A stretch of DNA of 64,000 bases, from positions 1 to 64,000 of the forward strand of contig JBIKLZ010000001.1 in NCBI GenBank assembly GCA_044359535.1, written 5' to 3'. Of this stretch, positions 12,001-15,000 are shown in pieces; position 1 is the first letter of the stretch, and every line of letters begins with the position of its first letter. The position numbers are program-made. Source of the DNA: Chlamydiia bacterium. GTDB taxonomy: Bacteria; Chlamydiota; Chlamydiia; Chlamydiales; 2-12-FULL-49-11.

Positions 12001-15000
12001 TATTTAAGTGATGAATTATACTCCAAAGAATTGAAAAAAGAATGAAAAGAGGGAAAAATGGGTGAAAAAAAATGCAATGACAAAGAGATGGCAGCGCCTA
12101 CTATAGACAGTAAAATTGAAGAGATGTTGATCTCTCAAAGGAAGATTTTTCTCTCAGCAGCAGTAGATGAAAAATCAGCAAAAGAGGTGATTACAAAGGC
12201 TTGGTACCTTGATTATATCGATCCAAAAAAACCTATTTTACTTGTGATTAACTCCCCAGGGGGGTCGGTAGATTCTGGTTTTGCTATTTGGGATCAATTC
12301 AAAATGCTCTCTTGTCCTATCTATACCCTTGTCACAGGACTTGCAGCTTCCATGGGCTCAATTTTGATGCTTGTTGCAGATAAAGGACATCGATATGTCT
12401 CTTCCCACTCAAGAATTATGATTCATCAACCTTTGATTGGGGGCTATATTCAGGGTCAAGCTACAGACTTAGAAATTCAAGCAAAAGAAATTATCAAGAC
12501 AAAAGAGGGCTTGATTCGCATTTATGAGGAGCACACAGGTAAGGCAAAAGAAAAAATTGCTGAAGCTCTTGATAGAGACACATGGATGTCAGCTGCTGAG
12601 GCAAAAGCTTTTGGACTTTGTGATCACATTGTCAGTTCCTATTCAGAAATTAAGATGTAATGATCGATTTTTTTCAAAGATTTCAACGCGAAGTTTAAAA
12701 AAAAGACCCTTGGATCTCCAACACCGAGTACAGCTAATGAGAAAGTATGACAAAAAAAAGAAATCTATGTATACTGTTTTCCCTAAATCAAAAGACCCTT
12801 TGCACTTTAATTTTGATCCTCAAGAAAAAATAAGGAGGGCTAGATTGGTGAAAAAGGGGTTTTAAGGGGAAAATAGAACTATCGATGGCTACAAAAAAGG
12901 GGGGAGGATGTCTCAAAAAAAACAGTGTATAGGGATTCCAAAAGAAATCAAAAACATGGAATTTCGGGTAGGAGCTACCCCATCTATGGTCAAGGGTTTT
13001 GTCATGAACGGGCACACTGTCCTTGTAGAAAAAGATGCAGGGGAGAAAATCGGATGTTCTAATGCAATGTATGAAAATGCTGGGGCAACCATTGTCTTAA
13101 CCCCAAAAGAGGTCTATAAAGCCGATCTTATCATTAAGGTAAAAGAACCCCAAGAGAGTGAATTTCCTCTAATGCACGAGGGTCAAGTCTTATTTTGCTA
13201 TCTTCATTTAGCCCCAGATGCAGAGCAAACAAAGCAATTAATAGAAAAAAAGGTGGTAGCTATTGCCTATGAAACGGTCTTTGACAGTGCTTATAGGCTC
13301 CCTTTATTGACACCAATGAGTGAAATAGCAGGAAGAATTTCTATTCAAGCAGGAGCTACCGCTCTTCACATGGAAAAAGGGGGAAAAGGGGTCCTTTTAG
13401 GGGGCGTTCCTGGGGTAAGGTCTGGAAAAGTTGTCATTATTGGTGGGGGAGTAGTTGGTGCAAATGCCGCTCAAATGGCTGTAGGTATTGGCGCCGATGT
13501 CACTATTTTAGACACCCATCTTGACAGGCTAAGGGAATTAGATATGCATTATAGGGGGCGTTTAAAAACCCTTTATTCCACTTCATATAACATTGAAATG
13601 TCTGTTAAAGAGGCAGATTTAGTTATTGGTGCAGTGTTGATTCCTGGGAAAAAGGCTCCAAGCTTAGTTTCAAAAGAGATGATTGCAAAGATGGAAAAAG
13701 GCAGTGTCCTTGTCGATGTGGCTATTGATCAAGGGGGGTGTTTTGAAACTTCAAAACCCACAACCCATTCACATCCAACCTATCTTGTTGACGGGATTGT
13801 CCATTACTGTGTGGCCAATATGCCTGGGGCTTGTGCAAGGAGTTCAACCTATGCTCTTACACATGCGACCTATCCTTATGCCCTTAAAATTGCAAACTTA
13901 GGTTATAAAAAAGCCTTAGCAAGTGATCCTTATTTTTTAACTGGCTTAAATATTGACAAGGGGAGAGTCACTCATAAGAATGTTGCAGAAGATCTTGGTT
14001 ATGAGTATGTTTGCCCAAAAAAATGTGTAGAAGAATAAAAAGGATCTTTTTCTTGACCCAAAAAAATCCATTTGCTTTAGATAGAATCATGCCTATGGGT
14101 AAAACCTTAAGAGAAAAATAGAAAGATGGTGGATAAGATTTTTACAGAAAGTGTCCTTAAAGAAGGAAATAGACTTGTTTCTTCTAAAAAAGTTCTCACT
14201 ATTATTTTTTCGAAAAGTATCTATCAAGTTGAAGTAGAGGATGAACATGGGGTCCAATGGACCTTTTTACAGTGTAAGGGAAAACAGGACATTATCGATC
14301 TATTTTGTGAGTGTGGGGGCTCAAAGGAAAAGGGGTGCAGTCATTTAGCTGCATCGGTAGAGGCCATTTTTAGAGGGTATAGTGAACCTTTACATATTCG
14401 ATATGAACGCTCTTTTTGGAAGGCGTTATTAGAAAATAGTGCGCTTAAGAACCATTATGCCCCCATTTTTTTAGACAAAGAGGGGCAAGCCTACCTAATT
14501 TCAAAAGAAGATCTTCTCATAGTAAAGATTGTTCCAAAAAGTTTTCGAGCTAAAGAGCATTGTAGAATCACTATCGATGAACGGGGAGAAGAAACGGAAG
14601 AAACAAGTATAAAATTCTCCAATTTAGAGGTAGAGGAATTAGAAAGGTATAAAAAAGGCGACCCTTCAGAGGCTCTAAAATTTGAATTGTCTTGGTGGTC
14701 AGATTTAGCCAAGTATCTTTTATTTTTAGAAGATGAGGGACAAAAGCCGTTTATTACCTTTATAGAGGAAGAGGGGAAACACCCCCAAGCTATTAAAGTT
14801 GAAATGGATGACTTTTCTTTGTATTTCTCTCTTCATTTTTCTGATATGGAAAAGATCATTCCCCCATTAAATGGGTATAGGACAAATCTCCCTTTATTTG
14901 ATCTTGCAGGAAAAGACATTGAAAATGTTTCTTATGATGAAAAGAGCCTTTCATTTTCCCTTGTCTTTAAAAAATCCGATCCCCATCACAGTAAGGGAGG

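Follow-up and report, generated by a model that had tools for sequence, protein, structure and literature searches.

Loss of meso-diaminopimelate synthesis alongside an intact wall machinery in an uncultured lake chlamydia

How can a chlamydia keep the machinery for a meso-diaminopimelate (mDAP) type of wall when the genes that make mDAP have decayed? The question is raised by the window analysed here, the first 64,000 nucleotides of contig C35 (C35:1-64000) of G000, the genome of an uncultured lake chlamydia (1.21 Mb in 57 contigs, 92.6% complete, 0.9% contamination). In its congeners the gene order is glyA-clpP-dapF-ald, and at the equivalent location the window holds only a remnant of dapF. 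The relevant features of the window are:

10526..11998, + strand: glyA (serine hydroxymethyltransferase), syntenic anchor
12058..12660, + strand: clpP, left anchor of the dapF site
12661..12907, + strand: dapF remnant, reduced to its 3' third, which carries frameshifts and stops and is best kept at 12728-12836
12908..14038, + strand: ald (alanine dehydrogenase), right anchor of the dapF site
52215..53309, + strand: mreB, intact, part of the retained wall and division machinery
57534..58397, - strand: kdsA, anchor of the dapB site
58378..58476, - strand: dapB remnant (3' end), syntenic, 67% identity, E 4e-8
58641..58715, + strand: tRNA-Arg(TCT), the other anchor of the dapB site

Directly after the clpP stop, dapF has lost some 570 bp of its 5' part and the remainder is frameshifted, although positions 12728-12832 still match the DapF of the congener G007 with 77% identity over 35 amino acids (E 4e-11 in a whole-genome search). 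An assembly artefact at this site was considered and ruled out, since contigs from X3, X4 and X8, three of the four runs from other studies, bridge the deletion junction (X6 has no cover there). The stub also occurs in a strain that shows 27 differences across 2 kb, and the 25 substitutions listed for this strain are distributed as 6 in the 247 bp gap between clpP and ald and 19 in the remaining 1754 bp.

The initial annotation had described all six mDAP genes as gone from this genome, and this is what we found: five of them persist as decayed stubs at their syntenic sites and dapL has been cleanly deleted. Apart from those of dapF and dapB, the stubs are located outside the window:

C50:26082-26216: asd remnant, at its syntenic site
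C5:25174-25398: dapA remnant, at its syntenic site
C35:151494-151601: lysC remnant (5' end), at its syntenic site

The dapL-like aminotransferase was removed from C33 (about 25457-25592) without leaving a stub. Its counterparts in the congeners match best the family TIGR03542, with 305 and 320 bits, under the cut-off of 364.7 and more than twice the score of the next family. Family searches across 31 genomes, including 8 congeners, found no intact dapF, dapA, dapB or asd in G000, and for lysC only a weak match to an unrelated kinase; dapF, dapA, dapB and lysC are each present in 7 of the 8 congeners and asd in 6. The stub DNA is 75-88% identical to the congener genes (70-81% for one dapA piece), values that are biased upward as they come from the best-scoring segments only. 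Four intact genes of G000 are 72-81% identical to those of the congeners, with synonymous sites differing at about 0.67. This likeness between stubs and intact genes indicates that the destruction of the pathway is recent and took place on the G000 branch.

In contrast, the wall machinery has been preserved. Queries from E. coli matched MurA-G, MraY, Ddl, MurJ, FtsW, RodA, PBP2, PBP3 and MreB, and further GlmS, GlmM, AmiA, DacA, NagZ and two OppA; C4 also carries Opp-type genes for a permease and an ATPase. The Mur and PBP genes are distributed over C3, C4, C7, C10, C20, C42, C48, C53 and a more distant part of C35. A full GlmU was not found with the E. coli query, and glmM runs into a contig end. 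All 21 peptidoglycan genes (28.5 kb in total) are open frames with no stop or frameshift, and the recent destruction of the pathway beside an intact wall machinery, as first proposed, is supported. In ten wall genes the residues unique to G000 and to its congener G005 amounted to 222:198, compared with 687:530 in 33 other genes (p 0.21), and the median dN/dS was 0.094 for wall genes and 0.124 for the others, a crude comparison, as dS approaches saturation and the G000 branch lies for the most part before the loss. The stronger argument is that six dap genes have been largely deleted and zero wall genes have been hit.

The MurE of G000 retains the DNPR motif and the conserved C-terminal pocket segments; at a site outside these, an Asn that is otherwise invariant is replaced by Ser. 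The earlier description of a retained Mur pathway and a MurE with the mDAP-type motif is correct. An acceleration of MurE was considered and discarded, since the lengthened branch of G000 in the tree of MurE reflects a genome-wide property. A DNPR MurE, that of V. spinosum, is reported to accept neither Lys nor Orn (PMC3681970). The suggestion that the cell must obtain its third stem residue from another source is supported as well. Among other functions searched in G000 with E. coli queries, from which distant forms can escape, Mpl, AmpG, LdcA, MpaA, YcjG, Alr/DadX, LysA, MetB, TcyJ/L and FtsZ were not found, and the mpl search retrieved only MurC and MurE, under the cut-off.

The loss had been regarded as a singularity of this species, and here the evidence is contrary, as G008, G020, G066, G150 and G163 are also devoid of dapF, and G014 of its native dapF. 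The congener G008 (68% complete) misses all six dap genes by family search, with a clpP-ald spacing of 18 bp, no dapB beside kdsA and no stubs. A ten-protein tree of 14 genomes groups G000 with G005 and G007, both of which make mDAP (support 100), and the monophyly of G000 and G008 is rejected (p-AU 5e-48), so the losses in these two genomes were independent. G014, from the same family f1 (90% complete), is without lysC, asd, dapA, dapB and the native dapF, its DapF-like gene being foreign, while G020, from another family (98% complete), misses all six and has a full MurI. The syntenic dapF site of G008, G014 and G020 contains no native dapF. Searches for dapF, asd and dapA gave none of the three in G066 and G163, and neither dapF nor dapA in G150. 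The DNPR motif of MurE is kept in G014, G020, G066, G150 and G163; the MurE of G008 is cut by a contig end and in G037 MurE is missing too. Among the order-wide genomes that are at least 90% complete, dapF was detected in 143 of 150, in line with the treatment of mDAP synthesis as core in chlamydiae, and asd in 136 of 150. G100 was left out of both counts, and G048 (only dapF missing) and G101 and G157 (native dapF) were regarded as probable assembly gaps. The loss of mDAP synthesis is thus recurrent in independent chlamydial lineages. No report of it was found in the main texts of the literature searched; the DapF/MurI tables supplementary to PMC5885031 may list DapF-less chlamydiae.

The disappearance of DapF could affect a second wall precursor, as the enzyme of C. 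trachomatis is reported to make D-Glu too (PMC5885031). MurI was not found in G000, and the initial annotation had left a truncated racemase as the only possible source. This racemase (C50:6201-6785), located in an accessory stretch, is of the YgeA/RacX type, lacks about 45 N-terminal residues and reaches 32 bits against the TIGR00067 cut-off of 146.65; neither it nor MurI is supported as the source of D-Glu. It is actually not the only candidate, since C8:5048-5857 codes for a class IV transaminase whose best PDB match is the Halhy (Haliscomenobacter) D-amino acid transaminase (7P7X/7P8O, E 5e-24). Fold IV, R28, R90 and the catalytic Lys are kept and R179 is replaced by Lys (reference residues from PMC8401098). 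The protein reaches no NCBIfam cut-off, and it was detected in 4 of 5 relatives searched and counted as ancestral. It is a plausible source of D-Glu, which it would form from D-Ala and 2-oxoglutarate, so the loss of DapF need not cut off D-Glu; with mDAP supplied externally, this transaminase could have removed the need for DapF. GlyA is a possible source of D-Ala, by parallel with the GlyA of C. pneumoniae (PMC3935232). Pathogenic Chlamydia are described as having no D-amino acid transaminase (PMC5885031), a difference from G000, where D-Glu probably comes from one.

A candidate route for the supply of mDAP is found in contig C22, in an acquired unit of three adjoining genes:

C22:736-1947: symporter
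C22:2027-2899: SH3b-NlpC/P60 peptidase
C22:2931-3677: YkuD-like gene

The peptidase has SH3b and NlpC/P60 domains with an intact Cys-His-His triad, and its hydrophobic N-terminus resembles a signal peptide (by a heuristic), suggesting that it is probably exported. The name YkfC-like given to it before does not apply strictly, as Val and Asn occupy the positions of Tyr118 (in SH3b) and Asp256, the residues that define the YkfC subfamily (PMC2954226), and in addition to the probable signal peptide there are close copies in mDAP-making chlamydiae. A ykfB neighbour is common, not obligatory, for YkfC, and no match to the E. coli YcjG was found in G000. Though not a YkfC, the enzyme may work as a gamma-D-Glu-mDAP endopeptidase, and its opened S2 pocket would be expected to admit sugar-bearing substrates.

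In the YkuD-like protein H190 and C202 are invariant in 90 sequences. The top fold matches of its model (pLDDT 92; Atlas 0.96) were Csd6 and Pgp2 (Z 13.3, with an rmsd of 2.6-2.7 across 135-137 residues) and Bd1075, with 18-20% identity, and transpeptidases ranked behind Csd6 and Pgp2 with Z up to 11.1. Csd6 and Pgp2, the closest folds, and Bd1075 are known as L,D-carboxypeptidases. Among the homologs listed, 10 of 120 are fused to an M15 D-Ala-D-Ala dipeptidase. If the modelled fold reflects its activity, this protein and the endopeptidase together would free mDAP and D-Ala. For the symporter there was no sequence match in the PDB.

The ancestral SH3-less NlpC had been reported as deleted from its site in G000, and it is. 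By its absence of SH3 domains it was apparently of the Simkania type. Chlamydial NlpC/P60 enzymes, the one of Simkania included, rescue a tripeptide-fed E. coli dapD mpl mutant (PMC9928106), which suggests that the swap was not needed for tripeptide cleavage.

As for C22 being a contaminant, its composition is normal, but a physical link to G000 was not found: no overlap of its ends with other contigs was detected, and it is tied to this genome by binning, that composition and a Sel1 paralog only.

The acquired peptidase had been associated with scavenging, and its distribution gives this idea a mixed answer. Within family f1, SH3-NlpC is found only in G000 and G014, both mDAP-less, and in none of the 17 mDAP-making genomes (naive p 0.016); the ancestral NlpC was found in neither of the two. 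More widely, an SH3-NlpC/P60 with intact triad is present in 6/6 well-assembled mDAP-less genomes versus 15/43 mDAP-making ones (naive p 0.004, kin not being independent, and a 23% match in G024 being scored as absence). If G008, G056, G101, G133, G156 and G169 are added as mDAP-less, the figures become 7/12 versus 15/43 (p 0.19). Four of the five genomes tested that carry the closest copies of the C22 peptidase keep dapA and dapF, which marks the unit as mobile rather than tied to the loss. The symporter, from a family with 682 matches, is present in G014, G020, G066 and G150; searches for it in G005 and G008 found none. In the latter, which has lost the pathway and is 68% complete, the peptidase was not found either. 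As a fixed partner of the peptidase the symporter was rejected, adjoining it in only 2 of 80 metagenome loci. The association in the well-assembled genomes therefore hints at a link to scavenging, against which stand the count with the uncertain genomes, the close copies in dapA- and dapF-keepers and the missing YkfC residues.

That mDAP is imported, from wall peptides or as the free compound, we consider rather probable. More tentatively, in the reading that we favour over each of the others although it is less probable than not, G000 would be an importer that perhaps frees mDAP from wall peptides by means of the C22 endopeptidase, the Csd6-like L,D-peptidase and the symporter. An mDAP-type wall or division ring would still be built, with the mDAP brought in from outside; its origin might be, with less assurance, bacterial wall fragments, for example from prey digested by a bacterivorous host. 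The endopeptidase would cut at the D-Glu side of mDAP, the L,D-peptidase would remove D-Ala from the other side, and the adjoining symporter, or the Opp system, would carry the products in. The presence of Opp, AmiA and NagZ was counted in favour of such salvage, as was the rescue of the E. coli mutant by chlamydial NlpC/P60 enzymes.

The same import could involve free mDAP, provided by a host, or by another symbiont living alongside, in which it is formed on the way to lysine (such as an alga or a protist bearing DapL/DapF), the C22 unit being then an ordinary wall remodelling system of unrelated arrival. We consider this version unlikely, but it is consistent with the occurrence of the unit in mDAP-making chlamydiae and with G008, where the pathway has been lost and the unit was not found. 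There are also partial precedents: for one protist and its symbiont, DAP exchange running the other way has been suggested (bioRxiv 10.64898/2026.03.27.714854), and a host-encoded gene is reported to cover the missing dapF of Moranella (PMC6838666). Both gains of the peptidase in family f1, however, fall on mDAP-less genomes, and no importer of the TcyJ/TcyL type was found in G000 with E. coli queries.

Instead of importing mDAP, the cell could use a stand-in diamino acid tolerated by its DNPR MurE, either lanthionine or cystathionine from the host, or lysine or ornithine. In E. coli, DAP is reportedly replaceable by cystathionine or lanthionine. Within the order such a substitution looks real: searches of G056, G133 and G156 yielded no asd and no true dapA, and their sole dapF match is a non-native, DapF-like epimerase from a foreign clade (support 98) situated directly behind a cystathionine-beta-synthase-like (CBS-like) gene. 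This unit resembles the lanthionine route of Fusobacterium, hints at lanthionine-type walls in these three genomes and makes the use of a substitute diamino acid more likely in general. For G000 itself we regard the substitution as quite unlikely, as no PALP/CBS gene, metB or intact two-cysteine epimerase was found in the 92.6% complete genome. A lanthionine synthase was discarded for the lack of a PALP/CBS-type match, the PhzF-like protein has one cysteine motif and the RacX/YgeA-type racemase is the N-truncated one. The pocket motifs of MurE are unchanged. Regarding lysine, a cyanobacterial MurE can misincorporate it, but this is reported to block cross-linking (PMC13130207).

It is improbable that the wall is simply no longer needed, the dap genes having gone first and the decay of the Mur and PBP genes being yet to come. 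The loss is indeed recent, as judged by the stub identities, and G037 illustrates that MurE can be lost in the order. Yet six genes are mostly deleted with none of the 21 wall genes interrupted, and the deletions of G008, G014 and G020 are older and stub-free, and these genomes still maintain MurE and the Mur cluster. Very improbable, finally, is a foreign dap operon that took over from the native genes and lies in the 7% or so of the genome missing from this 57-contig assembly. Such an operon would account for six scattered genes having decayed together and has parallels in the dapB-dapA-asd-dapL clusters of other chlamydiae, but would require an identical gap in each of the 96-99% complete G020, G066, G150 and G163, which are in a like state.

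The six genes destroyed in G000 are those of the chlamydial DapL pathway with its bifunctional DapF (PMC5885031). C. trachomatis likewise has an SH3b-NlpC/P60 enzyme (YkfC) and Opp for recycling, and the bond cut would free mDAP; that system is described as recycling the cell's own wall in the cytoplasm with a working dap pathway (PMC9928106), whereas G000 has no synthesis, a probable signal peptide and Val and Asn instead of Tyr118 and Asp256. Moranella in its mealybug also keeps a symbiont wall without dapF and other precursor genes, the host genome carrying transferred bacterial genes (PMC6838666), but G000 has lost its dap branch entirely and still encodes the Mur ligases itself. Blattabacterium (PMC3296467), Comchoano (PMC9418006) and Penulousia (bioRxiv 10.64898/2026.03.27.714854) are, like G000, reduced intracellular genomes with lysine auxotrophy; they are described as keeping the dap genes up to mDAP and losing only lysA, a pattern that G000 breaks.

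Tannerella forsythia is a natural MurNAc auxotroph and Fusobacterium nucleatum has a wall with meso-lanthionine. Both depend, likewise, on a scavenged or alternative wall block, but in G000 the missing block is mDAP and there is no lanthionine-synthase-like gene. The outsourcing of precursors by symbionts is of a known kind, and what is new is the repeated natural loss of the mDAP pathway in chlamydiae. A broader and rather doubtful generalisation would be that mDAP synthesis was abandoned at least five times independently in chlamydiae with the wall machinery kept, and that the gap was solved either by salvage as in G000 (mDAP from prey walls by a mobile endopeptidase, an L,D-carboxypeptidase and a symporter) or by a lanthionine/cystathionine wall through the acquired CBS-plus-epimerase unit (G056, G133, G156). 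A natural and recurrent mDAP auxotrophy would mean that a bacterium living obligately inside cells can leave the supply of its cross-linking amino acid to others, and chlamydial division would be tied to host diet or co-symbionts. G000 provides named candidate enzymes and a transporter that are testable in existing E. coli dap mutants, and possible lanthionine-type walls in chlamydiae are flagged.

Among the matches listed there were no RNA runs carrying G000-like DNA. Near-identical DNA is found in lake-water and freshwater metagenomes, and 14 of the 24 runs among the matches listed hold at least half of the words, two of these 14 being possibly the source of the G000 assembly.

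A two-gene unit, in which a cystathionine-beta-synthase (CBS)-like gene is paired with a foreign DapF-like epimerase, was found in three chlamydial genomes (G156, G133 and G056) where neither asd nor a true dapA was found, and is a candidate for a lanthionine/cystathionine wall route. The DapF-like genes of G014, a family member of the genome under study (G000), and of the chlamydial genome G169 form a second foreign clade (support 100). The genes preceding them, 26% alike over 107 aa, had no Pfam or NCBIfam match in either genome.

L322:2236-4028, CBS-like and DapF-like unit, G156
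L323:4700-6484, the same unit, G133
L325:251-2108, the same unit, G056
L329:221-1907, second-clade DapF-like gene with preceding gene, G014
L324:2824-4394, second-clade DapF-like gene with preceding gene, G169

No dapF, asd, dapA or MurE was found in the 0.8 Mb, 90% complete genome of G037, probably a wall-less lineage.

A Halhy-type D-amino acid transaminase of G000 is conserved within its chlamydial family and might be a D-Glu source in chlamydiae devoid of MurI. An accessory stretch of G000 carries a PhzF-like gene and an N-truncated YgeA/RacX-type racemase overlapping a fragment that, by its motifs, resembles a class D beta-lactamase.

C8:5048-5857 (L189:2049-2858), Halhy-type transaminase
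C50:1-12300 (L198), accessory stretch

Several chlamydial SH3b-NlpC/P60 proteins (L203, L204, L207 and L209 of family f3; L102 and L103) have Ala, Ser or Arg replacing the catalytic Cys and could possibly be non-catalytic binders of wall peptides.

Congeners carry an MFS transporter gene upstream of dapA. In G000 this transporter gene has disappeared along with dapA, and an unrelated 275-aa gene stands in its place. The window also encodes a 342-aa protein that combines a hydrophobic N-terminal segment with a long Pro-Thr/Pro-Ala repeat; it looks like an inclusion-membrane or surface protein, and congeners G005 and G007 lack it at the corresponding site.

C5:25460-26287; L076:3935-5185, dapA-adjacent MFS loss and 275-aa replacement gene
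Window 54964-55992, 342-aa repeat protein
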